DNA from: an uncultured Candidatus Saccharibacteria bacterium
GTDB lineage: Bacteria; Patescibacteriota; Saccharimonadia; Saccharimonadales; JAGQNK01
DNA: 64,000 nucleotides
Direction: 5' to 3'
Assembly (NCBI GenBank): GCA_964636435.1
Contig: CAZWRS010000001.1
Location: forward strand, 11,345-75,344
In this document: one piece after another, positions 4,119 through 46,556 of the stretch
Position numbering within the stretch: position 1 is the stretch's first letter
Layout: each line of letters begins with the position of its first letter
The notes under the pieces: generated by a model
The model's database searches: none
The model's input: only the letters and a program-made list of their open reading frames with translations
Told to the model about the DNA's origin: nothing
Translations under genes and position numbers: made by a program

Positions 4119-4260
4119 GGAGTAATTGACCGGGATATTGTACTATATTTTACCGTTCTCCTCCAGAGGAGAGGAGAGCAATTTCCATAAATGAACTAAC
4201 CCGCAGCCAAGCAGTGGGCTTATCAGGTATAATTAACCTGTTAGCGTAAGTTTATTGCCT

Positions 4261-5487: not shown

Positions 5488-5603
5488 CTTTAATACACCC
5501 TGCTGAACTTTCGGCCTATCCTCGTCAACCAGAAAGCAATTAAGTTGCCCCTACGTCCGGAGAGCTGTGGTACAAAGAGTTCTACTGCTGTATACAAGAG
5601 TGC

Positions 5604-6659
5604 CTACATCGATGCAGCCATACGAAGCAGCTGATCGCTGCTCAAGGCTGAGTTGCCTTCGATCTGATACCACACGCCGCCATCTACCCAGGTGGCGCTA
5701 TTATCGTCATAGATATAAATCGTCTTGCCGCTGTTTTGGAAGGTCTGGTACGTCTTCTGGGCTGCTGCTAAGAAGTTTTCCTGCAATGCCTCACTGTTCC
5801 ACTGGGTAGCAGACTGGCTGACCTTGAACTGCCGATCATCAGACCGCGACGCATAATTCAGCACGATCTGACCGCTCTGGTACTGAATCGGCCCTGCCAG
5901 GCCAAAGCCCGACGGCTGATACCCTGGCAAAGTACCGTTTACGCCTGCCCGGGCGGTAGCCAGCTGCATGCTCAGATTGGGAATGTTCTGGTAGGCCACG
6001 AAACCGGTCAGCAGCATGATTGCCAGGCTCGCAGCTGCGATGTTGATGGTCCGATTACTGACCTTGAGCTTGCGTGACAACCGCTGGCGCCGCGTCGTCT
6101 TCTTGGCCTTGGGCTGCTTGTGGCTCGTCGCCTCATCGAGTGCTGTCTGGATGGCTTTTTGGTGTACCGAGGTGCGCTTGGCGATATCTGCTTTGCCGTG
6201 GGTCTTTAGTGCGGGCGGTTCCGCCGGTGCTGACTTGACAGGCAGGGCAGCGGTGACGGGGCGGACGGCTTTTTGTGATCCGCCAAATTTGCTAACCAGC
6301 GGACTTTTACGAACTGATTTAGCCCGCGTTATCCGCTTGGGATCTATATCGACATGAACCGAGGGCCGGGCTTTTCGAACCGTCGGCGCAGCTGCTTTCG
6401 GCTTCGATGCCACCGGCTTTTTCACGACATTGCGCATCAGGGTCTTGGACTTTTCGGTTTTGCGGTGCACGGCAGTCGCAGTCGTGCGGCTACGAGGCGC
6501 GGCTTTGGGGCGACGGGAAAAGCCATCGATACTACCACCGGCCTTGGCGGCCACTGGCTTCGAGCCCGGCTTTACGACCGTTGGACCGGTAACTACTTTG
6601 CCGGTTCTGGCATCATAACGTTTTCCATTCAATTCAATTGTATTCGACTTGGGTCTCAT
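5604..6659 (-). CDS. Membrane-anchored protein with DUF4367-like C-terminal domain
   Basis: Basic, disordered 200-aa N-terminus, one TM (INIAAASLAIMLLTGFVAY), and a C-terminal segment (GYQPSGF...IVLNY...ATWVDGGVWYQIEG...SSDQLLRMAASM) resembling DUF4367 from memory. Confidence 0.6.
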   Translation of the reverse strand: MRPKSNTIELNGKRYDARTGKVVTGPTVVKPGSKPVAAKAGGSIDGFSRRPKAAPRSRTTATAVHRKTEKSKTLMRNVVKKPVASKPKAAAPTVRKARPSVHVDIDPKRITRAKSVRKSPLVSKFGGSQKAVRPVTAALPVKSAPAEPPALKTHGKADIAKRTSVHQKAIQTALDEATSHKQPKAKKTTRRQRLSRKLKVSNRTINIAAASLAIMLLTGFVAYQNIPNLSMQLATARAGVNGTLPGYQPSGFGLAGPIQYQSGQIVLNYASRSDDRQFKVSQSATQWNSEALQENFLAAAQKTYQTFQNSGKTIYIYDDNSATWVDGGVWYQIEGNSALSSDQLLRMAASM

Positions 6660-6814
6660 TATGATTTTCGAATTTTACCCTCAAAAGTTTGTTCAAAAAG
6701 CTTCTGTTAAATATCTTACTCGCAGTCGCGAGACGATGCAATAGCGATCCATGAACCTATTTAGTATTCGCCTCCCGGGACCAGTGCGCTATACTTACAT
6801 ACGAGCAATTACTT

Positions 6815-8296
6815 ATGGATTTTCTCGACCCACGGAAAAAACGCGCCCACAAAATCAGGCTGTACATCGGCTATGCACTGATGGCCTGTGTACTGGTGAT
6901 CGGCAGCACCATTGTGTTCTTTGAGGCACGTGGCTTTGATATCGACCGCAAGACTGGCGAAATTATTCAAAACGGACTGGTTTTTGTAAATGCCCATCCG
7001 GAACCAGCGACCGTCTACGTAAACGGCAAGCGGGAGGGGCAGACGGATACACGGCTAACCATCCCGACCGGTGACTACACCTTCGAATTTACCCGTGACG
7101 GCTACCGGAACTGGCAGCGGTCGTTCCATCTGGACGGCAGCACGATAGAGCGGCTGGACTATGTATTCATGTTCCCCGAGCAGCTCGACACGGCAGCAAT
7201 TCGTAATTACAGCGCCCCACCACCTTTCGCCAGCCAGAGCCCTGATCGTAAGTGGCTGCTCGTTCAGCAGCCCGGGAATTTTCTCACGTTTGATGTTTTT
7301 GACCTCAGTAATCAGGATGATCCAGCGGTCACCTCCTTCACCTTGCCGGCCAGTCTTATGAACCGTACGGCCGGCGGCGACAAGCTGGAGCTGGTCGAGT
7401 GGTCAACCAACAATCGCCACGTGCTGGTGCGGCATACCTTCAAGGGCGGGAGTGAGTTCATCCTGATCGACCGACAGCAGCCGACCGAGAGCCTCAATCT
7501 CAACAGCCACTTCAACGTACCGATCCACAAAATTGCGCTGCGTGACAAGAAGTTCGATAAATTCCACATTCTGGACAAGCCAGGCGGTACCCTGCGCTTT
7601 GCCGACAGCAGGTCGAGGGAGGTCACTGACCTGGCAGAGCAGGTCTTTTCCTTTAAGTCATACAGCGATAATGTCATCTTTTACGTCACCGGTGCGAAAG
7701 CTGAAAAAGGCAAGGTTAACGTCAATATCAGGAGAGGTGATAAAACCTACACGGTACGCGAACTCACCGCCGGCGCGCGGTACCCAATCGATATCACACG
7801 CTATGACGACGAATGGTTCATGGCAGTCGGTAGCGACACTGACGCCAAGGCGTACGTGTACCACGAGGTCTTCCGTGATTTGGACCGCCAGCCTAGTCGC
7901 TCGCCAAGTCCGGTAGCAGTTTTCAGAGTCGATGATCTTGCCCATATCGCCGTGTCAGCCAACACCCGCTTCATCAGCGCTCAGGGCGGCAGCCGCTTCG
8001 CTGTCTACGATGCTGAGCATGATCGCCGCTACCAGTACGACACTAAATTAAAGTTTTCCGATGGCCAGAAAGCTACCTGGATGGATGGCCATCGCCTGAC
8101 GGCCGTCATAGATGGCAAGCTGCGCGCCTGGGATTACGACGGCATCAATATGCAGACGCTCGTCAGCGCTAACCCGGCCTATCTGCCGTTCTATGACCGG
8201 GATTACGACTTCCTCTACACCATTGCGCCGTCCAGTCAGGACAAAGCCGAGTCTACGCTTACCAAGACACCGATGCGTACGCCCGCCGACCTCTAG
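6815..8296 (+). CDS. PEGA-domain membrane protein with beta-propeller-like C-terminus
   Basis: N-terminal TM, PEGA-type segment PATVYVNGKREGQTDTRLTIPTGDYTFEFTRDGYRNW, then a long beta-rich region. Confidence 0.75.
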   Translation: MDFLDPRKKRAHKIRLYIGYALMACVLVIGSTIVFFEARGFDIDRKTGEIIQNGLVFVNAHPEPATVYVNGKREGQTDTRLTIPTGDYTFEFTRDGYRNWQRSFHLDGSTIERLDYVFMFPEQLDTAAIRNYSAPPPFASQSPDRKWLLVQQPGNFLTFDVFDLSNQDDPAVTSFTLPASLMNRTAGGDKLELVEWSTNNRHVLVRHTFKGGSEFILIDRQQPTESLNLNSHFNVPIHKIALRDKKFDKFHILDKPGGTLRFADSRSREVTDLAEQVFSFKSYSDNVIFYVTGAKAEKGKVNVNIRRGDKTYTVRELTAGARYPIDITRYDDEWFMAVGSDTDAKAYVYHEVFRDLDRQPSRSPSPVAVFRVDDLAHIAVSANTRFISAQGGSRFAVYDAEHDRRYQYDTKLKFSDGQKATWMDGHRLTAVIDGKLRAWDYDGINMQTLVSANPAYLPFYDRDYDFLYTIAPSSQDKAESTLTKTPMRTPADL

Positions 8297-11084: not shown

Positions 11085-12614
11085 GTGGATGACTTTCAAC
11101 GACTGCAGCAGCGGGCCTACATCTACCTGGTGCTCATCAATGTCCTGACACTGAGCAGTGGCGTTGCGGTCTGGGCAATCGCCGATAGCTATGCGCTGCC
11201 GGCCACGACGGCATTTGGCGCCGCCTGTCTCGTCATGATGCTGTTATTTCTGGCAACCTCATTTCTGGCCAGCCGGCACTTACTCCAGCCGCTTAAGGTT
11301 CTCTGGCAGGCAATTCTGCACGTTTCGCCTGAGGCTGTTAACGTACCGCGGCCCAATATCGATAAGCTCCGCTTCGGCCGCGAGCTCGTCTTGTCACTCA
11401 CGAACCGCGTGTACCAATTTGCCAGCCAGGGGGAAGGCGAGGAGGTGGACCGCCGCAAAGCGCTGTTGCAAGCCGTCAATATCGTCAACTTGTTCCCACA
11501 GCCGCTGTTCGTCTTCAACAAAGACCGGGTGGTTACCAATGCCAGCGCCTCGGCACTGGAGTACCTGGGCCTGGAGAGCACGCAGCTTTTCGGCCAGAAA
11601 CTTTTTGAGCACGTGGACCTGGAATTTGCCACGCCGCACACCCTGGAGCGGTGGATTGAAGACTGCCAGGCAAACAAAGTGACGGATTATGCGTTCTGGC
11701 GGCGCGTGCGCATCAACCTGCCTGATGGCAAAACTGTCAAACAGTGCGATCTCGCCGCCCACTACAACCGGGCCAATGCCAGTGGCACGGAATTTATCAT
11801 TACCCTCGTCGATCAAACAGAGAACTACCACCAGGACGACGAATCACTCAGCTTCATCGCCATGGCCGTTCACGAGCTGCGAACGCCCCTGACCATGCTG
11901 CGCGGCTATGTCGAAGTATTTGAAGAAGAGCTCGACGGTAAGCTAGACGCGGAACTGGCGAGCTACCTCCGTAAGCTACGCCTCTCCACTGACCAGCTGA
12001 GCGCTTTCGTGTCGACAATCCTCAGCGTCGTCAAAGTTGACGAGAACCAGCTGTCGTTCAAGCTAGCTGAAGCGGACTGGCCAAAAACCCTACGCCAGAG
12101 CGCCGACCACATCAATGCGCGCGCTCAGATTCTGGGTAAAACGATCACCTTTAAAATTGACGGGGACCTACCGACAGTCGCCGTCGACCCCACGAGCATC
12201 ACCGAGGTGATCAACAACTTACTAGACAACGCCCTCAAGTACAGCGGCGACAGTACGGATATTATTGTCAGCTCCAGGCTGAACGCGGAAGGCTTCATCG
12301 AAACGACCGTACAGGACTTCGGGGTCGGTATTCCAGCCAATGTCATCCCCAACTTGTTTGAGCGTTTCTACCGTAACCACCGTACCCGCAACCAGTTCGG
12401 CGGCACTGGCCTTGGTCTGTATCTATCCAAAGCCATCGTCAACGCGCACGGTGGTACTATTGCAGTCAAATCCAAGCCGGGCGAAGGCAGCAGCTTCACC
12501 TTTACGCTCAAACCCTACGCCAGCCTTGCCGATGAGCAGAAAAACAGCGATAATGACGGCATCACCCGTCATGCCCACGGCTGGATCAAGAACCACAGTA
12601 TGTACAGAAGGTAA
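11085..12614 (+). CDS. Sensor histidine kinase (2 TM, PAS-like, HisKA, HATPase_c)
   Basis: H-box FIAMAVHELRTPLTML, N-box NNLLDNALKY, G1 VQDFGVGI, G2 GGTGLGLYLSK; GTG start. Confidence 0.9.
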   Translation: MDDFQRLQQRAYIYLVLINVLTLSSGVAVWAIADSYALPATTAFGAACLVMMLLFLATSFLASRHLLQPLKVLWQAILHVSPEAVNVPRPNIDKLRFGRELVLSLTNRVYQFASQGEGEEVDRRKALLQAVNIVNLFPQPLFVFNKDRVVTNASASALEYLGLESTQLFGQKLFEHVDLEFATPHTLERWIEDCQANKVTDYAFWRRVRINLPDGKTVKQCDLAAHYNRANASGTEFIITLVDQTENYHQDDESLSFIAMAVHELRTPLTMLRGYVEVFEEELDGKLDAELASYLRKLRLSTDQLSAFVSTILSVVKVDENQLSFKLAEADWPKTLRQSADHINARAQILGKTITFKIDGDLPTVAVDPTSITEVINNLLDNALKYSGDSTDIIVSSRLNAEGFIETTVQDFGVGIPANVIPNLFERFYRNHRTRNQFGGTGLGLYLSKAIVNAHGGTIAVKSKPGEGSSFTFTLKPYASLADEQKNSDNDGITRHAHGWIKNHSMYRR

Positions 12615-12615
12615 C

Positions 12616-13002
12616 ATGGACGAACAAACTGCAACACCCAAAAAAGTACTCTGCATAGAGGACGAGCATTTCATCAACGAGCTGTATGCCCGCGCACTCG
12701 GCAAAGCCGGCTACGAAGTAACGGTCGTCATGGACGGGGAAGAAGGCTTGGCGGAAGCGTTTACCGATGCCTACGATATCGTGCTGCTAGACATCATGGT
12801 GCCGAGCCTGATCGGTACTGAGGTACTAAAACGTATCCGGAGTGAAAAGCCTGACCTGCGCGCCAAAATAATCATCACGACCAATCTTGAGCTCAGCGAC
12901 CAGGACCGTGCCGCCATCGAAGCCCAGGCTGATGGCTACGTCGTCAAGGCGGAGCTGACACCACGCCAAATGGCGGAATTTTTACAGCAGTTCGACGCAT
13001 AA
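12616..13002 (+). CDS. Single-domain response regulator (receiver only)
   Basis: IEDE, phospho-acceptor D in VLLDIMVP, ITTN, and VVKAE Lys. The ATG lies 1 nt after the kinase stop. No output domain. Confidence 0.9.
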   Translation: MDEQTATPKKVLCIEDEHFINELYARALGKAGYEVTVVMDGEEGLAEAFTDAYDIVLLDIMVPSLIGTEVLKRIRSEKPDLRAKIIITTNLELSDQDRAAIEAQADGYVVKAELTPRQMAEFLQQFDA

Positions 13003-13178: not shown

Positions 13179-13517
13179 ATGCATTACGAAAACTCAGCAG
13201 GCGTCAGCGTACATAGCGGCTTCCCCAATCCCGCAGCCGATGCCAGCATCCAGGAAATCGACCTCAACAAGCTGCTCATCCAAAACAGCGTCAGCACGTA
13301 TTTCATGCGCGTATCGGGCGACGACTGGCAGGCTGTCGGCATCTTTGCGCACGATATCATCATCATCGACCGTGCGCTCGTGCCGCACCCGAACGACCTT
13401 GTCGTGTGGATCATGGACGATACATTCGCCATCTCACCCCGTCACGTACTGCCGCCGGGAGCGGCAGCCTGGGGAGTTGTCACCAGCGTCATTCATCAGT
13501 ACAGGGGCAGGGCATGA
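13179..13517 (+). CDS. umuD: UmuD-like S24-fold protein lacking the Ser/Lys dyad
   Basis: GFPNPAAD...IDLNKLLIQ...STYFMRVSGDDW aligns to E. coli UmuD GFPSPAAD...IDLNQLLIQ...ATYFVKASGDSM, and the C-terminal WGVVTSVIH aligns to FGVVIHVV. Confidence 0.8.
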   Translation: MHYENSAGVSVHSGFPNPAADASIQEIDLNKLLIQNSVSTYFMRVSGDDWQAVGIFAHDIIIIDRALVPHPNDLVVWIMDDTFAISPRHVLPPGAAAWGVVTSVIHQYRGRA

Positions 13518-14809
13518 CATCGTCGCCGGTGTTCGCGCTCGTTGACTGCAACAACTTCTTCGTCAGCTGTGAGCGTGTTTTTCGCCCTGACCTTACTAAT
13601 AAGCCAGTCGTCGTCCTCAGCAGTAACGATGGCTGTGCTGTTTCCCGCTCAAACGAAGCAAAGGCGCTCGGCATCCCGATGGGCGCACCGGCTTTTAAGT
13701 ACCGCGACCTATTCGAGCGGCACCAAGTTGTAAAGTTCAGCGCTAATTTTGAACTCTACGGTAGTATGTCACGGCGTATCACGCAGCTGCTGACCAGCGT
13801 TACACCCCGCCTGGAGGTGTATTCGGTAGACGAATCATTCCTCGACTTATCGCAGCTGGATATCCGCGACTATACAGCCTGGGGCCACACCGTCCGCGAA
13901 GCTATCCTCCGGTGGACGGGTATCCCCGTATCAATCGGTATCGCGCCCAGCAAAACACTCGCCAAGCTCGCTAGTGACCGCGGCAAAAAGCTCCCGGAGC
14001 TCAGCGGCGTCCTCAGCCTCGTAAGCAATCCCGACAGAGATAGGCACCTAGAATCGATGCCGATCGAGGACGTATGGGGTATCGGCTGGCGCCTGGCCCC
14101 AAAAGTGCGCGCCGAAGGTGTTGGCACCGCACTGCGCCTCAGCCAGCTACGCCCGCAGCGGGCCCAGCAGCTCATGGGTATCCGCGGCCGGCAGCTCGTA
14201 GCTGAACTGAACGGTACATCATGCTTCCCGCTGGAGCTCGAACATCAGCAACCTAAAAGCATCCTCCGCAGCCGCACGTTCGGTGAAGACACCAGTGCCG
14301 CACATATCGTAGAAGCCGCACTGGCATCGTTCGCGACCACCGCTGCCTTTCGCCTGCGCCAGAGCGGGCAGCTCGCACACCGCGCGGGCATATTTATCGA
14401 CACCAATAAGCACAAGCCCGGCTTCCGGCGCTGGTCCCGAGAGGTCATGTACCACCACCCAACCGCTGATACTGGCCGTCTCATCAGTGATCTGCTCGAG
14501 CTTTTTAGTGCGGTGCATAAACCAGGCGTGTCATACCATCGGGCTGGCGTATGGCTGGCCGATTTTGTGCCCGCCAACCAGCTGCAGGTAGATTTATTCG
14601 GACACATCGACTCTAACGGCCATGCCCGCTCAGTAGCACGCATGCAGGCTCTGGATGCTATAAACGAACGCTATGGTAAACGAACGATTCGCTTCGCTGC
14701 CGAAGATCTGGCCAAAGCCTGGCAACCCAAACACCAGGCCCGTAGCCCCCGCTACACCACCAGCCTGGACGAACTGCCCCTCGCCCAAATCGTTCACACC
14801 GCTAAATAA
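13514..14809 (+). CDS. umuC: Y-family DNA polymerase (UmuC / Pol V-like)
   Basis: FALVDCNNFFVSCERVF, VLSSNDGC, SVDESFLD and PIEDVWGIG motifs. Its ATG at 13514 overlaps the umuD-like TGA (ATGA). Confidence 0.9.
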   Translation: MTSSPVFALVDCNNFFVSCERVFRPDLTNKPVVVLSSNDGCAVSRSNEAKALGIPMGAPAFKYRDLFERHQVVKFSANFELYGSMSRRITQLLTSVTPRLEVYSVDESFLDLSQLDIRDYTAWGHTVREAILRWTGIPVSIGIAPSKTLAKLASDRGKKLPELSGVLSLVSNPDRDRHLESMPIEDVWGIGWRLAPKVRAEGVGTALRLSQLRPQRAQQLMGIRGRQLVAELNGTSCFPLELEHQQPKSILRSRTFGEDTSAAHIVEAALASFATTAAFRLRQSGQLAHRAGIFIDTNKHKPGFRRWSREVMYHHPTADTGRLISDLLELFSAVHKPGVSYHRAGVWLADFVPANQLQVDLFGHIDSNGHARSVARMQALDAINERYGKRTIRFAAEDLAKAWQPKHQARSPRYTTSLDELPLAQIVHTAK

Positions 14810-16047: not shown

Positions 16048-16068
16048 ATACCATGCTAACAGAGGCCA

Positions 16069-16097
16069 ATTCTAACACTTGGCGCACGAACTTTCAA
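16069..16097 (-). promoter_or_regulatory. Promoter for tRNA-Glu
   Basis: On the minus strand, TTGAAA (16097-16092), 17 nt spacer, TAGAAT (16074-16069), about 20 nt upstream of the tRNA 5' end. Confidence 0.6.
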
Positions 16098-16098
16098 G

Positions 16099-16127
16099 TT
16101 GCACTGGAGACTGAAAACAGGGATACT
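16099..16127 (+). promoter_or_regulatory. Candidate promoter for the second histidine kinase
   Basis: TTGCAC (16099-16104), 17 nt spacer, GATACT (16122-16127), back to back with the tRNA-Glu promoter. Confidence 0.35.
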
Positions 16128-16163
16128 AGTAACGATAAGCAGCTCGGCGGGACGCAACTCTAC

Positions 16164-17936
16164 ATGCAACACGTAAACGAAAAATGGCTACGCCTATTTA
16201 ATTACTACTATATCCTCGCAATGGTAGTAATGGGCGGCCCTTACGTCTACTTTGCCATCAACCAGCAATCTTTGTCCGTCACTGGCCAAGACATGTACGG
16301 CATGAGCATCGCAACGGGATTTTTTGCAGTACTCGGCGTCTTATACAACATACTTATACTGCGATACGTCAAGCGCACCAATATCTGGCTGGCTTACCTA
16401 CTGAGCTTCGCCTTCTTCTCGCTCACCTACAACGCAGCAGCAGAGGCTTCGCTTGAGCACACCAGCTCATACATATTCCTGTTGCACAATATTATCATTG
16501 CCTTTGCGGCAGCAACGTTCGGCCCCATCATTGCGCTGCTCGTGCTTGCAATAGTAGGCGTCGTGTTTGCAATGACCGTGTCGGGCAGCACGACTCCCAC
16601 CCTCTTGGGCACGGCAGGAGATGCTGTAACTGTCGCCATACGCGTTATCGGAGTGGCAGCCCTCCTGGTCTGGCTGAAAGACAAGTACCAGACTGTCGGA
16701 CCCACCAACCGCGATAACTATATTGAGCGTTACTTCGTCAGAAACGAAGTCGTCAAGCTCCTGACCGACTCGATTGGTGACGGTATTGTCATCATCGATC
16801 AAAAGGGAAACATCAAGTCAATTAATCCCGGAGCGCTACAGCTACTCGGCAAAGAAGAGGAGGACGTGCTCGATCTGGACTACCGAAGCGTACTCAAGTT
16901 TCAAACGCTCGCGCATGAGACGATTCAGGCCGAAGATGAGCTCGTCGCCAAAGCCATGAAGGACCTGCGCCCCTATAGCGACGAGCTCCTCATGACGGTC
17001 CGCGACAACGAAGAGATATTTGTCGATATCACGGTGTCGGTCATCGCTGACAAGCAGAAAGAAGACGTGTATGGTAGCGTCATCATCCTTCGTGACGTCA
17101 GCAAGAAAAAGCAGGAAGAAACTGCCAGGAGCGAGTTTATCAGTACCGCCTCGCACGAAATGCGCACCCCCGTGGCGGCTATCGAGGGCTATCTCGGCTT
17201 AGCACTCAATGACAAGGTCAGCACCATCGACAGCCGTGCGCGTGGCTACCTGGAGAAAGCCCACGCCAGCACCGAGCATCTCGGCCGCCTGTTTCAAGAT
17301 CTGCTGCTCAGCGCTAAGGCCGAAGACGGCCGACTCATGAGTGAGCCGCGCGTAGTAGAGATGGGGCAGTTCCTTGAGCAGCTCACTGAATCGCTCCGTT
17401 TCGTCGCCGAAAAGAAAGGTCTACTCATGGATTTCGTTATTGGTGCCAGCTCTCAGGAGCAGGCCAACCCAAATAACACCCAGATGATCAGGCCGCTCTA
17501 CTACACCCATGTTGACCCGGATCGCATGCGCGAGGTCATCACGAACATCTTCGACAACGCCGTCAAATATACCGATACCGGCAAGGTCACTATCGGCCTG
17601 ACGGGTAATAATGAAGTCGTGCAATTGTTCGTCAAGGATACCGGCCCCGGCATTCCGGCTAACGACCTAAGCCACCTATTCCAAAAATTCTACCGCGTTG
17701 ACAACTCCGCCACCCGGACAATCGGCGGCACCGGGTTAGGACTATTCATCTGCCGCAAGATTGTCGAGCTCTACAAAGGCCGCATCTGGGCAGAAAGCAC
17801 TGTCGGCAGTGGCAGTACGTTCTTCATCAATCTGCCGCGGTTAACCAACCAGAAGGCCGATGAGCTCATGAAGGCCGAAGCGGCCCAGGAAGCCAATACA
17901 AGCCCTCTTGATAAAACCGTAGCCGTGGTACAATAA
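16164..17936 (+). CDS. Sensor histidine kinase (multi-TM, PAS, HisKA, HATPase_c)
   Basis: H-box FISTASHEMRTPVAAIEGYL, N-box TNIFDNAVKY, G1 VKDTGPGI, G2 GGTGLGLFICRK. The ORF is open from 16053, but that stretch overlaps the tRNA-Glu promoter, so ATG 16164 is preferred. Confidence 0.85.
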   Translation: MQHVNEKWLRLFNYYYILAMVVMGGPYVYFAINQQSLSVTGQDMYGMSIATGFFAVLGVLYNILILRYVKRTNIWLAYLLSFAFFSLTYNAAAEASLEHTSSYIFLLHNIIIAFAAATFGPIIALLVLAIVGVVFAMTVSGSTTPTLLGTAGDAVTVAIRVIGVAALLVWLKDKYQTVGPTNRDNYIERYFVRNEVVKLLTDSIGDGIVIIDQKGNIKSINPGALQLLGKEEEDVLDLDYRSVLKFQTLAHETIQAEDELVAKAMKDLRPYSDELLMTVRDNEEIFVDITVSVIADKQKEDVYGSVIILRDVSKKKQEETARSEFISTASHEMRTPVAAIEGYLGLALNDKVSTIDSRARGYLEKAHASTEHLGRLFQDLLLSAKAEDGRLMSEPRVVEMGQFLEQLTESLRFVAEKKGLLMDFVIGASSQEQANPNNTQMIRPLYYTHVDPDRMREVITNIFDNAVKYTDTGKVTIGLTGNNEVVQLFVKDTGPGIPANDLSHLFQKFYRVDNSATRTIGGTGLGLFICRKIVELYKGRIWAESTVGSGSTFFINLPRLTNQKADELMKAEAAQEANTSPLDKTVAVVQ

Positions 17937-17977
17937 TCTATAACCATAAGCATGCATAACTAACAGGGGACCCATCA

Positions 17978-18985
17978 ATGGCAAAAATCATGCTCGTCGA
18001 AGACGACAACAACCTGCGTGAAATCTACGAAGCTCGTTTGCTCGCCGAAGGGTATGAGATCGTTTCAGCAGAGGATGGTGAACAAGCACTCGCTCTGGCA
18101 GTCAAGGAGAAGCCGGACCTCATCATCAGTGACGTTATGATGCCGAAGATCAGCGGCTTTGACATGCTGGATATCCTGCGCAGCACACCAGAAACCAAGC
18201 ACACCAAGGTCATCATGATGACCGCGTTGTCACAAACGGAAGATAAAGATCGGGCTGACAAACTTGGCGCTGACAGATACCTCGTGAAATCACAAGTCAC
18301 GCTTGAGGACGTGGCTAAAGTTGCCCAGGAAGTTCTGCAGGACGGCGATACCCTGCCAGCAGCAGTTACACAGGCACCCGAGCCAGCAGCAGCGCCAGCA
18401 GCATCAAGCCCTGCCCAGCAAACCCCGGTACAGCCCACACCAGCACCAGCACCAGTCACTGATATGCCGGTAGCAACGCCACCGGCTGATCCCGCGGCGC
18501 CAGCTGCTGCTCAGCCTGCCGTTCAGGCCCCAACACCAGCACCAGCACCAGCACCAGACCCCAGCACCAGCTCTGCGCCAACACCCACGGCCAACGCAGA
18601 TACAACGAACGCTGCCGCCAACGTTGCTGCCGACATGGCAAACGCCGTCAACAATTTGCTGCAAAACAACCCGTCCCAGACAGCTGACCCGGCAACTCCT
18701 GCACAAGCCCCAGACCCCACGCCAGCCGCGAGCAACCACATTGCAGGCAAGAAGGTAATTAGGCCCATCAACGACCTGTCCGCGAACAGCGGCCCGGATC
18801 TGAATGCGCTGCTTGCTAAAGAAATGGGCCAGGACCCAGGCGCTACCCCGGTAGAGCCACAGCCACCGACCACCACCCAACCAACCCCGGAAACACCCGC
18901 CGACGAGCAGCCAGTTGATGTGCCGCTGCCCGGCAATGTCCAGACGCCTGACAACCCGAACGACCCGAACAATATCGCACTGTAG
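17978..18985 (+). CDS. Response regulator receiver fused to a ~210-aa Pro/Ala/Thr-rich tail
   Basis: Receiver motifs VEDD, D in IISDVMMP, MMTAL, LVKSQ. Low-complexity PAPAP/TPAP sequence follows. No DNA-binding domain recognised. Confidence 0.88.
   Translation: MAKIMLVEDDNNLREIYEARLLAEGYEIVSAEDGEQALALAVKEKPDLIISDVMMPKISGFDMLDILRSTPETKHTKVIMMTALSQTEDKDRADKLGADRYLVKSQVTLEDVAKVAQEVLQDGDTLPAAVTQAPEPAAAPAASSPAQQTPVQPTPAPAPVTDMPVATPPADPAAPAAAQPAVQAPTPAPAPAPDPSTSSAPTPTANADTTNAAANVAADMANAVNNLLQNNPSQTADPATPAQAPDPTPAASNHIAGKKVIRPINDLSANSGPDLNALLAKEMGQDPGATPVEPQPPTTTQPTPETPADEQPVDVPLPGNVQTPDNPNDPNNIAL
18534..18557. repeat. Perfect tandem hexamer (CACCAG)x4 inside the RR tail
   Basis: CACCAG occurs four times in tandem. 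A second run of three copies lies at 18438-18455. Both encode (PA)n. Confidence 0.9.
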
Positions 18986-27733: not shown

Positions 27734-28771
27734 ATGACTGAAACGCCTTCAAAGCAGCTCCAGATCGAGAGCATAATCACCGATATTCTCGGCACCATCG
27801 ACCGCGAAAGGGAACGAGAGATTATCGCTCGTCGCTACGGCCTCTTTGACCGCAAGGAAACACTGGAGCAAATCGGAGAGCTGCTCGGCATCACCCGTGA
27901 ACGTGTCCGCCAATTAGAGAAAGCCGTTATGGCACGCCTGAAGGCGCAGGCCGACGATGGCCAGCTACCGCACATCCAGGAAGTTCAGAGCGTTCTGCTG
28001 GACGAAGTCAACGCTATGGGCAAAGTCGCCCGTGTAGCCAATCTGAGTGCTCGCCTGACCAAGGAAAACACCCGTATCGATCAAGCCCGTATCTCCTTCC
28101 TCGCCGCGTTGAGCCCCGAGATTGCTGTCGTTGACGAAAATGACCACTTCTATCACTCTGTCGGCATTGCCGATGTACACAATGAAAAGCAGATCAAAGA
28201 ACTTACCGGCAAGACGATTGATGCCATCAAGAAAATCGGCGAACCAACCACCATTGATAAAGTTGCCAAAGAAGCCAAGATCGATAGCCCTGAGCATGCC
28301 GCCGCTCTCGCCAGCACCTCCAAGAGTCTGGCAACCCTAAACGACAAATGGGGCCTCGTCAAGTGGCCAACCGTCAACCCGAAGAACATTCGCGACAAAA
28401 TCTACGTCATCCTGCAGGAAACAGGGAAGCACATGCACTTCAGTGAAATTGCCGAAGCCATCAAAAAGTCTGATTTTAAGCGCAAAGATGTCACCACTCA
28501 GGCAATCCATAACGAACTCATCAAGGACAAGCGCTTCGTCCTGATTGGTCGCGGCATCTACGCCCTCAAAGAATGGGGCTACAGCCGAGGCACCGTCGCC
28601 GATATCATTGCTGAGGTACTGAAGAAGGCAGGCGAGCCATTACACCGCGACGAAATCGTCAAACAAGTACTCAAGAGCCGTCACGTCAAAGAAACGACCA
28701 TCCTTTTAAACCTCCAGGGCAAACCACAGTTCAAGCGTGTCGCCAAAGCTACCTACGCCCTAGCTGAGTAG
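27734..28771 (+). CDS. Sigma-70 region-4-like HTH fused to HARE-HTH/winged-helix modules
   Basis: EREIIARRYGLFDRKETLEQIGELLGITRERVRQLEKAVMARLK is sigma region 4-like. The C-terminal MHFSEIAEAIKK...RFVLIGRGIYALKEWGY and PLHRDEIVKQVLK...FKRVAKATYAL are HARE-HTH-like. No sigma region 2. Confidence 0.7.
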   Translation: MTETPSKQLQIESIITDILGTIDREREREIIARRYGLFDRKETLEQIGELLGITRERVRQLEKAVMARLKAQADDGQLPHIQEVQSVLLDEVNAMGKVARVANLSARLTKENTRIDQARISFLAALSPEIAVVDENDHFYHSVGIADVHNEKQIKELTGKTIDAIKKIGEPTTIDKVAKEAKIDSPEHAAALASTSKSLATLNDKWGLVKWPTVNPKNIRDKIYVILQETGKHMHFSEIAEAIKKSDFKRKDVTTQAIHNELIKDKRFVLIGRGIYALKEWGYSRGTVADIIAEVLKKAGEPLHRDEIVKQVLKSRHVKETTILLNLQGKPQFKRVAKATYALAE

Positions 28772-28795: not shown

Positions 28796-29500
28796 ATGAA
28801 ACTCAGAGAAGATGAGCGACTCGTCGCCATGACAAAGACAGAGGTATTTTCTACGTATCTGGCAGGAGTAGACCTACAACCGAACTCATATCAGTATGTT
28901 GCAAATAAGATGCTTTGTAATCAGACTGAGCTGCCCTCAGCTGCATGTGATATAAACCGATTGGGCGCAGCACCTTCAACGTCAGAAAGTGATACGAGCT
29001 TTATTCGCCAGGTACAATCGGTGACATATGAGCCGACTACTCTTGGAGAGCAGTTTACGACGCCGCCCGATGCCTTTGTTTTCACCCTAAAGTCTGCCGT
29101 ACCTGTTGCTGATTGTGTAAGAGGGTTTTTTGATGCTATAGGGCTCGAGCGTCCACTCATTGAGGTAGTAGAGTCTAACCGAGACCTGTCCGAAGGCTAC
29201 TACGAGCTACTCGACAGAACGGATGACAAAGAATTCGCCGAAGAAACTGTACTACAGGAAGCCGACAGACTACGGGATAGTCTGCAGGGCGCTGAGCATG
29301 TGTGTGTTGTAGACCAGTTTGTTTGTAGTGGTATGACGCTAAAACTTGCAGGAGAAATATTAAAGATGGCTGGCCTACGTAACATTTCTGCCATTCGCGG
29401 AGACTGGTATGATGATGCATATTCCTATGATGTTATTCCGGCAAGTGCTACATCATTACATAGGCAGTTTATGTATGGTGTCGGCGCTCGATGCGGCTAG
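28796..29500 (+). CDS. Hypothetical protein with C-terminal PRTase-like PRPP-binding motif
   Basis: HVCVVDQFVCSGMTLKLAGEIL resembles the type I phosphoribosyltransferase loop (hydrophobic-VDD-x-x-x-TG-x-T). The N-terminal 150 aa are unassigned. Confidence 0.5.
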   Translation: MKLREDERLVAMTKTEVFSTYLAGVDLQPNSYQYVANKMLCNQTELPSAACDINRLGAAPSTSESDTSFIRQVQSVTYEPTTLGEQFTTPPDAFVFTLKSAVPVADCVRGFFDAIGLERPLIEVVESNRDLSEGYYELLDRTDDKEFAEETVLQEADRLRDSLQGAEHVCVVDQFVCSGMTLKLAGEILKMAGLRNISAIRGDWYDDAYSYDVIPASATSLHRQFMYGVGARCG

Positions 29501-29518
29501 AACACTTAAATACGAATA

Positions 29519-29541
29519 CATGAACCTTTTACGAACATTTG
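29519..29541 (+). repeat. Iteron-like direct repeat, copy a
   Basis: CATGAACCTTTTACGAACATTTG; 20/23 identical to copy b. Confidence 0.85.
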
Positions 29542-29566
29542 CCTGATTTGCAGCACCTGGATATTC

Positions 29567-29589
29567 CATGAACAATTTGCGAACATTTG
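29567..29589 (+). repeat. Iteron-like direct repeat, copy b
   Basis: CATGAACAATTTGCGAACATTTG, 48 bp after copy a. A weaker copy, CAATGAACTTGGCGCGCACGAC, starts at 29610. Confidence 0.85.
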
Positions 29590-30017
29590 ATATAACAGAA
29601 AGACGTTCACAATGAACTTGGCGCGCACGACAAGGACACTGAGGAAACCCTTTATTTTTACCAGAGCAAAAGGGTAGCCGTAGAGCATGCTACAAATAGT
29701 CTGTAAGTAAACTCAGCGGCAAAAAGAAGCAGCAGACCATCAAACAGTGAACCAAAAGCAAACATACACACGATGTCGTACAATGCATATTTTGCGACAT
29801 GCCTATGGTGATTACAGATGGTTCACGGTACACCTTTTGCAGGGGACTAAACCAGTGCCTAAGGCATTTGCAGCCACATTTCTTCTCGCAATCCGGTCTT
29901 CACTAGACTGTGTGGCTGCCCCTGAGGGAGCCTTTGCAGTAGCCGTGCTTGCCAAGCTTTGGGCCCAGCCTCAGCCATCGATCTGGCAATGACACGTGCC
30001 GAGCAACCATGTTTGAC

Positions 30018-30026
30018 TTTTCCACA
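30018..30026 (+). promoter_or_regulatory. DnaA-box-like 9-mer
   Basis: TTTTCCACA fits the relaxed TTWTNCACA consensus and borders the AT-rich tract. A single 9-mer could occur by chance. Confidence 0.2.
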
Positions 30027-30039
30027 GAATCGCTGTGAA

Positions 30040-30170
30040 AATATTTGCTTTTTTGTTGTTTTGTTTGTTTTATATAGTATTCCCCTGTTCTTTCCCTGTT
30101 TCGTGAAATATTTGACTTTTTTGCTTTGTGATATGTTTGTATAGTTTTTTGAACGCTACCTAGTTAGCAA
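30040..30170. other. AT-rich T-tract region (about 30% GC)
   Basis: A hand count of 30061-30120 gives 18/60 G+C. It contains repeated TTTTGTT/TTTGCTT runs and no ORF. Confidence 0.7.
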
Positions 30171-30173
30171 GTA

Positions 30174-30196
30174 CATGAACATTTTGCGAACATTCA
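30174..30196 (+). repeat. Iteron-like direct repeat, copy d
   Basis: CATGAACATTTTGCGAACATTCA; 20/23 identical to copy b, same orientation, 607 bp downstream. Confidence 0.85.
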
Positions 30197-30219
30197 GGGT
30201 AGAGCGGTCCAGGGGGCTT

Positions 30220-31146
30220 TTACTTATAGTAGACCTTGCCGGGCACACGTACATCAATATATTCACGCGGCTCGACATTATCCTGGGACAGCTTCTTGTG
30301 TGTTGCCAGGTACGTCCCTGCCTGCACCCTACTCTCGTCGCGCAGGTTAAATTTTACATAATACGGCTTACCAGCCATGCGAACGTGCATTTCGTTCGGG
30401 ACGGTAGGCAATATCATTGATTGTATAGTCATATCTTTACGCTGAAGTTGCGCTGCGACTGCTGCCACGAAATTAACCGACTCCTTAGATAAGGCATAAC
30501 GACCAAGTTCAAGTGAGAGGCCGCTCTCATCGCGTAACACCGGCAGCGCATCACGAACAGAGCTCTCGATGTCCGCAGCCTCGGCCATAATCCGGCCATT
30601 TTCATCGAGCACAAACCCACCGTCGACTGTAGTCAGTACCAACTTCGGCGCTGCTGGCTCAGCTTGGACGACTGGCCGCCGCCCAATCAGTGGCAGCACG
30701 ACAGATACGTCGCCCAGCTCCGGATATTCGTCAGCTATCCTACCGGCTATCTCGTTGCTATTTATGAGCAATTTACTTTTATTAGTGATTGAGCTATCCA
30801 AGATTTTGCGTATGCCCGCCTCGTATTCAGTAACATCATGTGTGATGCCAAGCTTCGTATTGCCAGCTATCTGCAGCTTGGGATCACTGCTTAGACTCGA
30901 TATATACAGCAAACAGCCGGCCAGAACAGCCCCCGCAATAAACGATGGCACAAGTGGTAGCCATGCCCGATCTGGCCTAAGCTTGGGCTTTTTACGGTCT
31001 GTTGGCGCGGCCGCCTGATGCATACCACGCCTGGTGCGGACATTTTCGCCGGTCGAACGATTCGCGTAGTACGAAAATACATTTGCCGACTGTTGTGGCC
31101 GAACCTGGCGGACTTTTTGCTCTGGTATTTGTTTTTTTCGGCGCAT
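30220..31146 (-). CDS. ftsQ: Cell division protein FtsQ/DivIB-like
   Basis: Basic N-terminal tail, one TM (LPLVPSFIAGAVLAGCLLYI), POTRA-like region; sits downstream of murG at the end of the dcw cluster. Confidence 0.7.
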   Translation of the reverse strand: MRRKKQIPEQKVRQVRPQQSANVFSYYANRSTGENVRTRRGMHQAAAPTDRKKPKLRPDRAWLPLVPSFIAGAVLAGCLLYISSLSSDPKLQIAGNTKLGITHDVTEYEAGIRKILDSSITNKSKLLINSNEIAGRIADEYPELGDVSVVLPLIGRRPVVQAEPAAPKLVLTTVDGGFVLDENGRIMAEAADIESSVRDALPVLRDESGLSLELGRYALSKESVNFVAAVAAQLQRKDMTIQSMILPTVPNEMHVRMAGKPYYVKFNLRDESRVQAGTYLATHKKLSQDNVEPREYIDVRVPGKVYYK

Positions 31147-43932: not shown

Positions 43933-45468
43933 TTAATCTGCTGGTTGGCCTGTCAGCGCGTCCTCACCGAAATGCTTCTTTATCCGAGCCCGAATTGAGC
44001 CGGGATGTCGGCCAAAAACTTCCGTCAGTTCCCTGACGGTTACCTCCCTCCCGTCGCTAAAAAGCTCAACGAGGCGCCTGTCATCAGCCTCACTCCATGG
44101 CTTATAGGCGTTCGGGTATTTTTTCCGCATTTTATCGAGCTTATCAGTCCACGAGTTGGATGTTACGGCGGTCTCTTCACGTTTTCGTGCTCGTTCAGCT
44201 GCTTGGTCACGCAAATACTCGAACCGTACGGCGTCCCTGGCCGCCCGACTACGTAAGTCTTCATCAATTGCCAGCGCCTCGGAACTGACTCGCAGTGCCA
44301 TCTGGTTGATACCAGCCAAGCTCAATGTCTCCAGGCTACGTACGCGACTGAGTGCCACGTAACCCATACCCTCAACAAATGCTTTCCTGAGGTCTATTCG
44401 TGCAGCATCTAGCGTCATACCTTGGCTTTTATGGACAGTGATCGCCCAAGCCAGCCGCAGCGGAATCTGACTGAGTGCTGCGCGTTTTTTGTCACCGTCG
44501 CGAAGTTCCCACGCCTCGGGCGCAATAGTTATTTTTCGTCCATCTTTGAGCTCAATTATTGGATAGCCTGTTTCTTTTTCGAAGCCAGCAACAACCCCGA
44601 GCGAGCCGTTGACGTACTTCTTCTCAGGATTGTTGCGAATACACATAACGAGCGCACCTTCCTTCAGCACCACCTCCTCCTGCGCCAGACACGACCGCTT
44701 GAGCGTTTCAACATAACTGGACTTGCCGCTCGTGCTCATGGTGTAAACATGAACATCTCCGTCCAATTGGCGCAACCGCTCCTGGTTAATGGCGTCCACG
44801 TCCACATTAGTGGTATGCAACTCGGTAGCCTCCTCAAAAGGATCATACGCACCGCGCCGCGCCAGCAGCGCTTCAGCGTGACGGCGGCGAATATCACCGG
44901 CGCGCATAGCATTGAGAATTTCCAGGAACGCATTGTCGTTTTGCCGATGCTGCTCAGTTAAGTAGCACACGACCGGGTCGAGCTCTTGCCAAACGTTGGC
45001 ATTGATTATAAAACTGCCTGGCCGGCTATCATTTCGAGTCACCGGTGGCAGTTGAAAAAAGTCTCCACACAGCACCACTTGGAGGCCACCGAACGGCGCG
45101 TCTACCTCACGGACTTTACGGGCAATTTCATCGACCATATCTAGCCGATAATCGTGCAGCATTGATACTTCATCGATAATCAGTACATCTGTTTTCCGGA
45201 TCGTCTCCCGTCGACCCTTGAGCAGGTGTTCATGAAAGTTGCGGGGTAACTCGTCGTGAATACCGATGCCGCTCCAGGCATGGATCGTATTACCATTCAG
45301 GTGTGTCGCCGCCAGACCGGTCGTGGCGGTGACTGACACGTGCCTGCCTTCCTGCTTGGCTCGTCGGATAAACTCATTGAGCACATACGTCTTACCAGAC
45401 CCGGCTGGTCCAGTTAGCAGCACACTTTCGCCTGCCCCCATGATTTCGAGTGCTAAAGTCTGATCCAT
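43933..45468 (-). CDS. Pif1/RecD-like SF1 helicase with C-terminal HTH-like tail
   Basis: Walker A GPAGSGKT, TGLAATHLNGNTIHAW, Walker B IIDEVSML, LCGDFFQLPPV, TVHKSQG and YVALSRV motifs. About 90 extra C-terminal residues. Confidence 0.85.
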   Translation of the reverse strand: MDQTLALEIMGAGESVLLTGPAGSGKTYVLNEFIRRAKQEGRHVSVTATTGLAATHLNGNTIHAWSGIGIHDELPRNFHEHLLKGRRETIRKTDVLIIDEVSMLHDYRLDMVDEIARKVREVDAPFGGLQVVLCGDFFQLPPVTRNDSRPGSFIINANVWQELDPVVCYLTEQHRQNDNAFLEILNAMRAGDIRRRHAEALLARRGAYDPFEEATELHTTNVDVDAINQERLRQLDGDVHVYTMSTSGKSSYVETLKRSCLAQEEVVLKEGALVMCIRNNPEKKYVNGSLGVVAGFEKETGYPIIELKDGRKITIAPEAWELRDGDKKRAALSQIPLRLAWAITVHKSQGMTLDAARIDLRKAFVEGMGYVALSRVRSLETLSLAGINQMALRVSSEALAIDEDLRSRAARDAVRFEYLRDQAAERARKREETAVTSNSWTDKLDKMRKKYPNAYKPWSEADDRRLVELFSDGREVTVRELTEVFGRHPGSIRARIKKHFGEDALTGQPAD

Positions 45469-45518
45469 AGTCTATCTAGTATAGCTGACCGTACTGACAC
45501 CCAGGTAAGCGGCGGGTA

Positions 45519-46556
45519 CTACAAGACCTGCTTCAGCAGCTCTTCTTCGTCTGCCTCTTTGATGAGTTTCTTGCTCTTGATTTCGTAGCGCAGCCCCGTT
45601 AGCGGCGACTCCATATAATCATCGTTGAGCAAGTTCACAAATTTATTTAGATCTTTGTCATCCATTAAAATGATTGCGCCCTGATCATCCAACATCAGCT
45701 CGATACCGATATCGTCAGCATGCTCTAGCAACTTCTCCTGCGTGGTGGCCGTCGGATCGACTTTTTGCAACTTGTTGACGAGTGCCTTCTTGCCCTTCAC
45801 TATCGCTTCGAGCGACTCTTCCTCATAGCTCAGCTTGAAGATCTCGCTGATCATTTTCATCTTCTGCACCGCAATACCGTACTTCTTGGCATTGTAGCCA
45901 AACAGACTATCTAACTTGGCAGGGTTAAAGGCATAGATGTCTTGATCGAGCACTAGCAGCTGATTGTCCGCCGGAATCTGCAGGCTACCGTCAGCATCGA
46001 ATGGCACGAATTTACCGTCCTTCATGAGCCACGCCGTACTGCCTTTCATGAGCGACGAACCAGGCAGACCTTTAATGATGTAGAACGGCTTTTTCAGCTC
46101 TGGATGACTGCAGCGCACCAGCACCCCCTTAATCCGCTTGAAGTCATGCTCCTCTTCTACAAACGGTTCAATCTCTGCCTCTTGCGTCTTGAGCCAGCTA
46201 AGCAGCACCCGGGCGCTGTCGACATTTTTGAGCCGGGTGCGCTGCAGCACCTTACCCTCGGCCTCACCCTCCTCAAACTCGCGCACGATCATCCCCTCTT
46301 CTGCACCTGTCAAAACGTACTCCAGTAAATTATCGATGAGCAGCGGCTCTAGAGTTCGGCGCAAATCCTTACTAACGTTTGTCCTGTACACCACGTAGTT
46401 CTTGTTGAACAGAAACACTTCAATACGCAGCTCTTCTTTAATTGGCACGAGATTATTCGCCCACAGAAACACATCCGATGTTTCGTAGCGCTCCGCCTCT
46501 ACCTCCTGGGCTTCTGCAGATTTTGTTTGTTCAACTGCTACTGAAGGTTCTTCCAC
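45519..46556 (-). CDS. Acidic 345-aa protein, tentatively DUF4868/KwaB-like
   Basis: GTG start with GGAG 9 nt upstream, 50 nt upstream of the helicase on the same strand. The C-terminal NKFVNLLNDDYMESPLTGLRYEIKSKK segment recalls DUF4868-type proteins from memory only. Confidence 0.4.
   Translation of the reverse strand: MEEPSVAVEQTKSAEAQEVEAERYETSDVFLWANNLVPIKEELRIEVFLFNKNYVVYRTNVSKDLRRTLEPLLIDNLLEYVLTGAEEGMIVREFEEGEAEGKVLQRTRLKNVDSARVLLSWLKTQEAEIEPFVEEEHDFKRIKGVLVRCSHPELKKPFYIIKGLPGSSLMKGSTAWLMKDGKFVPFDADGSLQIPADNQLLVLDQDIYAFNPAKLDSLFGYNAKKYGIAVQKMKMISEIFKLSYEEESLEAIVKGKKALVNKLQKVDPTATTQEKLLEHADDIGIELMLDDQGAIILMDDKDLNKFVNLLNDDYMESPLTGLRYEIKSKKLIKEADEEELLKQVL

Follow-up and report, generated by a model that had tools for sequence, protein, structure and literature searches.

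Within a window of 64,000 nucleotides from an uncultured Candidatus Saccharibacteria bacterium (contig CAZWRS010000001.1), a gene-free gap of ~720 bp (positions 29501–30219) separates two convergent genes, one at 28796–29500 on the plus strand and an FtsQ-like gene at 30220–31146 on the minus strand. With moderate confidence, we interpret this gap as a recombination locus of the Xer/dif type that is equipped with a conserved accessory module and also serves as a phage attachment site. This interpretation draws on the conservation of the module, the architecture of its core site, the junctions of prophages and a complete prophage that has no recombinase, together with the lack of origin, RNA and coding signals in the gap. 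An earlier reading of the window, made from the letters alone (the sequence-only reading), had pointed to direct repeats, a DnaA-box-like 9-mer and a low-GC tract at this place, and its observation is partly confirmed. Among its proposals, a terminus-associated protein-binding array came closest, given that the core is a dif-like recombination site, although the skew inflection expected of a terminus is absent within ~30 kb.

Conservation of the module among related loci

Scanning 185,579 species genomes for the repeat motif gave 12 matches, approximately the number estimated by chance, only one of which came from Saccharibacteria (the genome of the window apparently lies outside this set). 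This metagenome-assembled genome, L016, has a gap of similar size with the same motif and served as the syntenic starting locus, from which alignment of FtsQ led to 80 metagenome loci with FtsQ proteins 32%–53% identical to that of the window. Landmarks were counted in the 63 distinct loci with enough sequence, and alignments of 7 and 59 sequences were compared. In the window, the FtsQ-like gene forms the end of a minus-strand division and cell-wall (dcw) cluster, mraZ–rsmH–...–PBP–mraY–ftsW–murG–ftsQ (PBP, penicillin-binding protein). Sequence comparison indicates that the gap is a non-coding module of ~620–680 bp, kept as a unit across Saccharibacteria at the end of this cluster in ~60 distinct loci, which agrees with the earlier view of gene-free DNA of a protein-binding type rather than a decayed gene.

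Read from ftsQ, the module comprises repeat 1, an A-rich tract, a box pair, a variable spacer, a TCCCCTG block, a 24-mer, a T-rich tract and one or two further repeats (Table 1). The motif of repeat 1 is found in 61 of the 63 loci, 18–242 nt past the ftsQ stop, and is followed after 102–195 nt (median 164) by a TGTGGAWAA box in 59 loci, 27 of which have the perfect form TGTGGATAA. The 24-mer GTCGCAAAATATACATTGTGCGAC lies a median of 372 nt past repeat 1 and is present with at most two mismatches in 60 loci (exact in 32); the second repeat follows the core by 181–261 nt (median 200) in 59. All four landmarks occur together, at fixed spacings, in 55 of the 63. The 24 consecutive bases of the core are invariant without any third-position pattern, a conservation far above that of coding DNA, and thus do not represent a coding sequence, given that FtsQ is only 32%–53% identical over the same loci. 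For the gap as a whole, the earlier statement that no credible gene exists was borne out. The open reading frames (ORFs) inside are only 60–81 aa long, and an all-against-all BLASTP of stop-to-stop ORFs matched the same DNA blocks between species on both strands and in several frames, so coding potential was rejected.

Two loci, L035 and L042, have an extra gene after ftsQ. In L035 this is a CvpA-trypsin gene, beyond which the whole module is intact; the module is thus a discrete unit. These comparisons bear on the possibility, named in the sequence-only reading itself, that the gap is a decayed remnant of ftsA/ftsZ or, likewise, of an old mobile element, with leftover direct repeats and no present function. 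The place after ftsQ, where many bacteria have ftsA and ftsZ, would suit a remnant, as would the direct repeats that bracket the gap as around an insertion and the variable cargo between repeat 2/3 and the sigma-like gene beyond it. However, block order, spacing and sequence have been maintained across the phylum while the neighbouring proteins diverged to 32%–53% identity, the ORF matches fall on both strands and in several frames, and the L035 module stayed intact though displaced by an unrelated gene. We therefore find a remnant hardly credible. The module would instead have been inherited vertically in Saccharibacteria, and a role in chromosome maintenance is proposed for it.

The 24-bp core site and its use by phages

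The core is composed of two inverted 9-bp arms, GTCGCA(A/C)AA, around a 6-bp centre; the left arm GTCGCAAAA and the right arm TTGTGCGAC (reverse complement GTCGCACAA) agree at 8 of 9 positions. It measures 24 bp, or 28 bp with flanks, is intergenic, and has 42% GC against ~52% for the window. There is a single copy in the 64 kb (0.00 expected) and one per related locus. The sequence-only reading had noticed a related ATTTTGCGA core at 29788, which turned out to be part of the 24-mer at 29775–29798, the most conserved element of the module, and had thus caught only a piece of it; the similar core that it placed at 37971 in the mraZ–rsmH spacer reads ACATTTTTGCGGG, not ATTTTGCGA. Taken with two flanking bases on each side, the core matches Escherichia coli dif GGTGCGCATAATGTATATTATGTTAAAT at 17 of 28 positions, with an identical centre, TGTATA, in one orientation, and Bacillus subtilis dif at 16 of 28, (both dif sequences are from PMC3025954). 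Agreement is in the inner arms and the centre and not at the outer XerD-arm positions. The 6-bp centre is non-palindromic and invariant in hosts and phages alike. Because such a centre is needed for strand exchange, we read the core as a recombination site rather than an operator.

In its size of ~28 bp, intergenic place, low GC content, dyad arms and 6-bp centre, the core is like the chromosomal dif sites of the systems XerC/D–dif (E. coli, B. subtilis), XerS/difSL, XerH/difH and XerL/dif, with which it also shares conservation across a phylum, a location where gene orientations converge and exploitation by integrase-less elements. Its near-perfect arm symmetry resembles the single-recombinase site of Legionella, where dif and XerL were likewise found via integrating elements (PMC9765430). 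Unlike known dif sites, it has outer arms that are not those of XerC/XerD, ~600 bp of conserved surroundings, and no skew inversion within ±30 kb; its neighbours are fixed, whereas those of Legionella dif vary. In the literature on Saccharibacteria that we searched, we found no account of a dif site, an Xer system or a filamentous prophage without integrase, nor any description of filamentous phages of these bacteria.

Scanning IMG/VR for the 24-mer and its halves revealed elements inserted at this site. In the contig L106, ftsQ and the left half of the module run up to a full site at 1327–1350 (attL), and a hybrid site ATATCGCAATATACATTGTGCGAC follows at 6836–6859 (attR), past which the native T-rich tract and repeat 2 resume. 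The 5.5 kb in between (1351–6835) encode a rolling-circle Rep (Pfam REP_ORF2-G2P, 1.9e-11), a Zot ATPase, and pIII-like and small proteins. From this gene content, the element is assigned as an inovirus prophage, complete between its att sites, and no recombinase is found among the ORFs between them. A second inovirus prophage with Zot and Rep occupies 708–7341 of L127, whose last 700 nt match the uninterrupted L057/L058 locus at 100% identity, beginning with base 8 of the site; comparing occupied L127 with empty L058 places the crossover at the boundary of left arm and centre. Furthermore, the centre and right arm AATATACATTGTGCGAC occur in 29 viral contigs with variable left arms; many of these contigs are from tailed phages, in which the site precedes terminase genes. 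The phage copies are without TGTTC repeats and DnaA boxes. Among 130 ORFs within 3.5 kb of the viral sites on these partial contigs, no integrase family recurs, and a box-II regular expression, used without a positive control, detected no integrase near the sites.

These elements behave like integrative mobile elements exploiting Xer (IMEX), of which integrase-less filamentous phages that use XerCD at dif are known examples (such integration behaviour is described in PMC3025954 and PMC9765430). A recombinase-less element flanked by site copies is seen in L106 and in the L127/L058 pair, and the 29 viral contigs provide an attP in which the centre and one arm are kept and the second arm is degenerate. 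Like CTXphi, VGJphi, XacF1 and LME-1, the prophages are inoviruses with rolling-circle Rep and Zot but no integrase, and regenerate the full host site at one junction. They differ from these elements in that the hosts are Saccharibacteria (Patescibacteria/Candidate Phyla Radiation, CPR), that tailed-phage contigs also carry the mimic, and that the recombinase is putative.

The present observations enable us to propose a model for the locus. A host-encoded recombinase, which we infer to be of the Xer type, would bind the arms of the core and exchange strands within the 6-bp centre, and the normal task of the core would be the resolution of chromosome dimers. Inoviruses that lack a recombinase of their own would carry a mimic of the centre and right arm and integrate at the host site; the tailed-phage contigs carry the same mimic. 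The TGTTC repeats at both borders of the module, together with the box pair and the A/T tracts, would be bound by proteins that organise or regulate the recombination locus.

Alternatively, phages might be drawn to the conserved end of an RNA gene, as they are to tRNA and tmRNA genes, with the 24-mer acting as an RNA hairpin. One or more non-coding RNA (ncRNA) genes, which the sequence-only reading had allowed for, are in our judgement quite unlikely. The 24-mer can indeed form a 6-bp stem with a 12-nt loop, and a promoter-like TAGACA-17-TATTTT overlaps it on the plus strand in 20 of 51 loci. On the same strand, the DnaA-box pair with the U-run behind it looks like a terminator, and a short CCCCT/AGGGG hairpin with some compensatory changes forms in the conserved block ahead of the core in some species, being weak or absent in several, the window included. 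However, stem position 5/20 is often a C·A mismatch, and the bases of the loop and spacer are as invariant as those of the stem, as is usual for sites of protein binding or recombination. Covariation is absent from both candidate stems, that of the 24-mer and that of the box pair. Neither conservation nor structure is seen in the ~200-nt body, which has a mean folding z of about −0.45 on both strands (−0.48 and −0.43 by strand in 57 sequences; −0.8 and −0.6 in the window). The gap gives no Rfam match at gathering or at E≤10, and no tRNA or tmRNA by ARAGORN. Finally, the L106 prophage has no integrase, which targeting of an RNA gene needs. The 9-bp inverted repeat GCAGCCACA/TGTGGCTGC that had been noted in mid-gap is real (29870/29911), but both it and the mid-gap hairpin fall in the sole non-conserved part of the module.

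Tailed-phage contigs with a dif-like site just upstream of terminase genes include L107 (761–784), L138 (122–145), L121 (73–96), L116, L120, L124, L131 and others, and several such contigs end within ~100 nt of the site. In the phage family of L119 and L132–L136, a common conserved hairpin is followed by the dif-like site.

Border repeats, box pair and A/T-rich tracts

The 23-nt direct repeats reported earlier are confirmed: CATGAACNNTTTNCGAACATT occurs at 29519, 29567 and 30174 on the plus strand, and the 64 kb hold no other copy with up to three mismatches (0.07 expected). The copies are 83%–91% identical as 23-mers; the pattern with single unspecified bases in which they had been described matches nothing, the spacers being NN and N. 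Each copy contains GAAC-N7-GAAC as claimed (five in the window, three of them in the gap, 1.5 expected), and the weaker copy proposed at 29610 amounts to ATGAAC only. On the ftsQ strand, on which the repeats always lie, the sequence is AATGTTCG-N4-AATGTTCA, in which two TGTTC half-sites stand at a distance of 11 bp. Across the modules the pattern is TGTTCG-N5-TGTTCA, with the half-sites as the most conserved positions, and several relatives have a second downstream copy or half copy. With spacings of 48 and 607 bp, the repeats bracket the module and are not tandem. The concern that they might be a common dispersed repeat is answered by the related loci, where 87 matches lie inside modules and 4 outside in 442 kb.

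Two direct half-sites of 5–7 bp that stand 11 bp, or one helical turn, apart are the geometry of winged-helix response regulators, and the border repeats share this arrangement with the sites of the OmpR/PhoB family (ArcA/PhoP/WalR-like). The earlier suggestion of an OmpR-like factor that binds direct repeats thus fits the repeat geometry, by analogy with these sites. ArcA, which the plasmid Xer site psi uses as an accessory factor, recognises a direct-repeat box, TGTTA-N6-TGTTA, that the border repeats resemble. A region of transcription control or a roadblock for the operons on either side might follow from this geometry, in which an OmpR/PhoB or ArcA-type regulator occupies TGTTC-N6-TGTTC, and the 24-mer is a palindromic operator that became attB by chance, with recombinases supplied in trans. 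In favour of such a region, the window encodes two histidine kinases and two receiver-domain proteins, and there is a conserved sigma70-region-4/HARE-HTH protein (65%–90% identity) whose gene always adjoins the module. On the other hand, each of the flanking genes has its 3′ end at the module, leaving no promoter to regulate; the motif occurs nowhere else in the 64 kb and only four times outside modules in the 442 kb, which is not the distribution of a regulon; and the invariant non-palindromic centre is typical of strand exchange, not of operators. No winged-helix output domain (Trans_reg_C) was detected in the receiver proteins of the window, and no cognate regulator with a promoter regulon was found in the fraction of any genome that was searched, where the motif is confined to the module. 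We regard transcription control or a roadblock as unlikely.

The DnaA-box-like TTTTCCACA at 30018 and the T-rich, low-GC tract were correctly recognised from the sequence: bases 30020–30170 have 31% GC and 50% T. In relatives, the TGTGGAWAA box is preceded by an inverted TTTTCAC(A/G). The two arms do not covary (TTTT stands opposite ATAA in 15 sequences), and the pair is therefore more probably a set of protein boxes than a hairpin. The alternation of GGAAAA and GGATAA falls on the W position of the DnaA consensus TTWTNCACA, without a compensating change in the partner arm. Past repeat 1, the A-rich tract of relatives shows the boxes AAAAGTCAAAT, AAAAAGCAAAT and GGGGAATAnTATATAAAAC; the T-rich tract has an ATGTTCG half-site ~12 nt past the core and a CTGCCCTGC block, which on the other strand reads GCAGGGCAG and points to the core. 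A candidate promoter, TTGACT-18-GAAAAT, over the DnaA boxes was rejected, as its spacing varies in relatives.

Such boxes raise the question of a replication origin, whether oriC, secondary or iteron-type, in which DnaA would bind TTWTCCACA boxes, the A/T tract would unwind, and the repeats would serve as iterons or regulator sites. Features that such an origin might contain are indeed present: a consensus DnaA box whose position is constant in 59 of the 63 loci (perfect in 27), the weak inverted second box adjoining it, and a ~130-bp tract of 31% GC with repeated AAAAG(T)CAAAT boxes. The consensus box, inverted weak partner and A/T-rich tract are also like those of oriC and of DnaA-box clusters elsewhere, such as datA and DARS. 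Unlike these, the module has only one or two boxes per ~1.2 kb, one consensus and one weak, in place of the multi-box cluster of oriC, and it shows no skew minimum. It has no dnaA or dnaN signature in the 64 kb or in the related loci. The genes on its flanks converge, where genes at origins diverge, and no switch of skew accompanies the gap, either in the window or in 28 of the 30 relatives, 4-fold degenerate sites included. Iteron origins have at least three tandem iterons of 17–22 bp and a rep gene; here the spacings are 48 and 607 bp, and a rep gene is missing. A published closed Saccharibacteria genome, in which the skew is normal and symmetric, has its origin placed between dnaN and dnaA (PMC6031116). 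The iteron-type origin of the sequence-only reading is thus not sustained, and we consider an origin of any kind very unlikely. Most likely, the repeats, the TTWTCCACA box pair and the A/T tracts are not origin iterons but are bound by proteins with an accessory or organising role, among which DnaA and a winged-helix regulator that binds in tandem are possible candidates.

The plasmid sites cer of ColE1, which uses ArgR and PepA, and psi of pSC101, which uses ArcA and PepA, offer a precedent for such accessory proteins. The likeness consists in an Xer-type core with ~200 bp of conserved flank that carries motifs resembling binding sites; the differences are that the present module is chromosomal and has conserved flanks on both sides of its core. 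By extension, dimer resolution might take place at the dif-type core within a ~620-bp accessory module in which accessory proteins build a topological filter of the cer/psi kind, instead of depending on FtsK and terminus position alone. This extension is tentative, and we think it improbable; equally tentative is the assignment of its parts, namely phased TGTTC repeats at both borders, the DnaA-box pair and bent A/T tracts. If true, a filter of this kind would imply that replication termination is systematically asymmetric in the phylum.

Chromosomal position and neighbouring genes

Gene orientation converges at the gap: 20 of 22 genes on its left lie on the plus strand and 33 of 34 on its right on the minus strand. 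An unbiased k-mer screen for words pointing at the gap from both sides ranked CAGGGCA, GCAGGCA and GCAGGGCA at the top. In the window, GCAGG(G)CA points toward the site 39 times and away 0 times, compared with an order-3 Markov expectation of ~15 toward and 6 away. Over 75 loci the ratio is 119:14, with 74 toward and 10 away on the dcw side and 45 and 4 on the side of the sigma-like gene. Inside the gene-free module, 19 copies point toward and 2 away, and the reversal falls at the 24-mer. Against the same Markov model, GCAGGGCA and GCAGGCA combined are ~2.5-fold over-represented and GCAGGGCA alone 4.5-fold. By analogy, GCAGG(G)CA and GCAGGGCA look like candidates for words of the FtsK-orienting polar sequence (KOPS) type. 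GCAGG(G)CA is, like KOPS of E. coli (GGGNAGGG), G-rich, over-represented and polar, and reverses at the core, also inside the module; unlike KOPS, it opposes the GC skew on one of the two sides, and its polarity is here inseparable from gene orientation.

Several points weigh against a dif-type locus. One is GC skew, which is negative across the whole 64-kb window with no inflection within ~30 kb on either side; of 30 loci read in the ftsQ direction, 28 have a positive skew on the two flanks alike. The 4-fold degenerate sites are C-rich on the plus strand on both sides (−0.27 and −0.11), and no additive mix of replication and transcription effects reconciles their skew with a switch at the gap. 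Since the skew keeps its sign on both sides, the site is not at the compositional terminus; judged by composition, the fork from the dcw side looks to pass the site and to replicate the far side head-on. The polar-word signal is confounded with gene orientation, reliable genes of opposite orientation being too few to separate the two, and the counts inside the module may come from one homologous block. As to the enzyme, the outer arms are unlike the canonical XerD arm TTATGTTAAAT, a Pfam search of the ~55 window proteins found no Xer or FtsK gene, the HUH Rep of the inoviruses may itself act as integrase, and the integrase survey extends only ±3.5 kb into partial viral contigs, its regular expression lacking a positive control. 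Finally, a plain dif needs only 28 bp, whereas here ~600 further bp are conserved. With genes and a polar word converging at the site while the skew does not, and with ~600 bp of extra conserved DNA compared with 28 bp elsewhere, the locus poses a puzzle. A distance between dif and the skew inflection has precedents, namely 35–43 kb for experimentally supported sites in Legionella and, in other species, as much as 79 kb (PMC9765430). Converging genes without a skew flip would result if the two replication arms were unequal in a conserved manner.

Saccharibacteria and other Patescibacteria comprise a large, barely cultivated part of bacterial diversity whose chromosome biology is almost unexplored. 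If the Xer/dif-type interpretation is right, the core would provide a 24-bp marker for the architectural terminus of Saccharibacteria genomes and would account for the attachment sites of their inoviruses and of some tailed phages. It would also offer a natural, conserved integration site for genetic tools in newly tractable strains.

Table 1. Elements of the module and examples of the polar word, in window coordinates
Feature	Position	Strand	Description
C-rich block CCGCTCTACCCTGA	30195..30208	-	just upstream of repeat 1 (ftsQ strand); alignment consensus CCGCTCTnCCCTGA
Boundary repeat 1	30172..30194	-	reads AATGTTCGCAAAATGTTCATGTA on the ftsQ strand; 26 nt past the ftsQ stop
A-rich tract (ftsQ strand)	30043..30171	-	T-rich on +, 31% GC; boxes conserved in the 7- and 59-sequence alignments
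Box AAAAGTCAAAT in A-rich tract	30110-30120		+ coordinates
Box GGGGAATACTATATAAAAC in A-rich tract	30067-30085		+ coordinates
Box AAAAAGCAAAT in A-rich tract	30043-30053		+ coordinates
Inverted pair of DnaA-box-like 9-mers	30018..30042	.	TTTTCCACA 30018-30026 (+); ATTTTCACA 30034-30042 (-)
Third AAAAGTCAAA box	30011-30021		overlaps the box pair
Variable spacer	29854..30010	.	157-259 nt in relatives, not alignable between species; holds the 9-bp inverted repeat and hairpin
Conserved block (A)GTCCCCTGCAAAAGG	29833..29853	-	~40 nt before the core; place of the CCCCT/AGGGG hairpin
Core recombination site (putative)	29775..29798	-	ftsQ strand GTCGCAAAATATGCATTGTACGAC, two mismatches to consensus GTCGCAAAA-TATACA-TTGTGCGAC
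Core-site sequence			GTCGYAAAATATACATTGTRCGAC
T/pyrimidine-rich tract	29590..29774	-	right of the core on the ftsQ strand
Boundary repeat 2	29565..29587	-	orientation as repeat 1; ~200 nt past the core; present after attR in L106 and L127
Boundary repeat 3	29517..29539	-	48 bp beyond repeat 2, beside the stop codon of the 234-aa gene
Polar word, examples	6242, 9047, 13507, 19127, 19145	+
Polar word, examples	31432, 31469, 33919, 42991, 54686, 54933, 55653, 62413	-

On its far side from ftsQ, the module has fixed neighbours, the gene of the sigma70-region-4/HARE-HTH protein and then topA. Between repeat 2/3 and the sigma-like gene, related loci have a variable cargo zone of 0.2–3.2 kb, with unrelated genes depending on the species and none in some. 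The convergent gene at 28796–29500, which encodes 234 aa with a PRPP-binding-like motif and gives no Pfam match, belongs to this cargo as a phosphoribosyltransferase-like gene with homologues in L071 and L093 only. The idea that the variable genes are insertions at the core was rejected, as the cargo sits beyond repeat 2/3. The sigma-like protein itself (27734–28771, plus strand; 345 aa) has an N-terminal sigma-70 region 4 helix-turn-helix and HARE-HTH domains. Among loci in which FtsQ is 32%–53% identical, it is 65%–90% identical and always adjoins the module. As a possible DNA-binding protein, it could matter to the module.

The four copies of TTTGCAG that had been counted in the gap are present (29547, 29836, 29867 and 29933, plus strand), among nine on the plus strand of the window; the one at 29836 is the sole gap copy within a conserved block, and the other three are genome-specific. 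Logan contigs from four samples stop at 30179, and those from the opposite side stop at 30204–30208. These breaks probably mark a branch of the assembly graph at a 30-mer that is conserved between the co-occurring strains; since this shared 30-mer accounts for them, an indel and a dispersed repeat were both rejected as the cause.

Judged by composition, ~30 kb of genes, including topA, der, pth, gltX and the two histidine kinases, lie head-on to replication. Each kinase gene is followed by a gene for a receiver-domain protein, one small with a single domain and the other of 335 aa, the C-terminal half of which has no assignment; the two pairs lie at 11085–13002 and 16053–18985 (plus strand). 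Between them, an ORF of the peptidase S24 type (UmuD/LexA-like) and an IMS-family polymerase with a DUF4113 domain follow each other at 13179–14809 (plus strand), apparently a translesion-synthesis cassette. At 43933–46556 on the minus strand, a PIF1-like helicase is encoded beside a protein like KwaB, a component of the Kiwa defence system.

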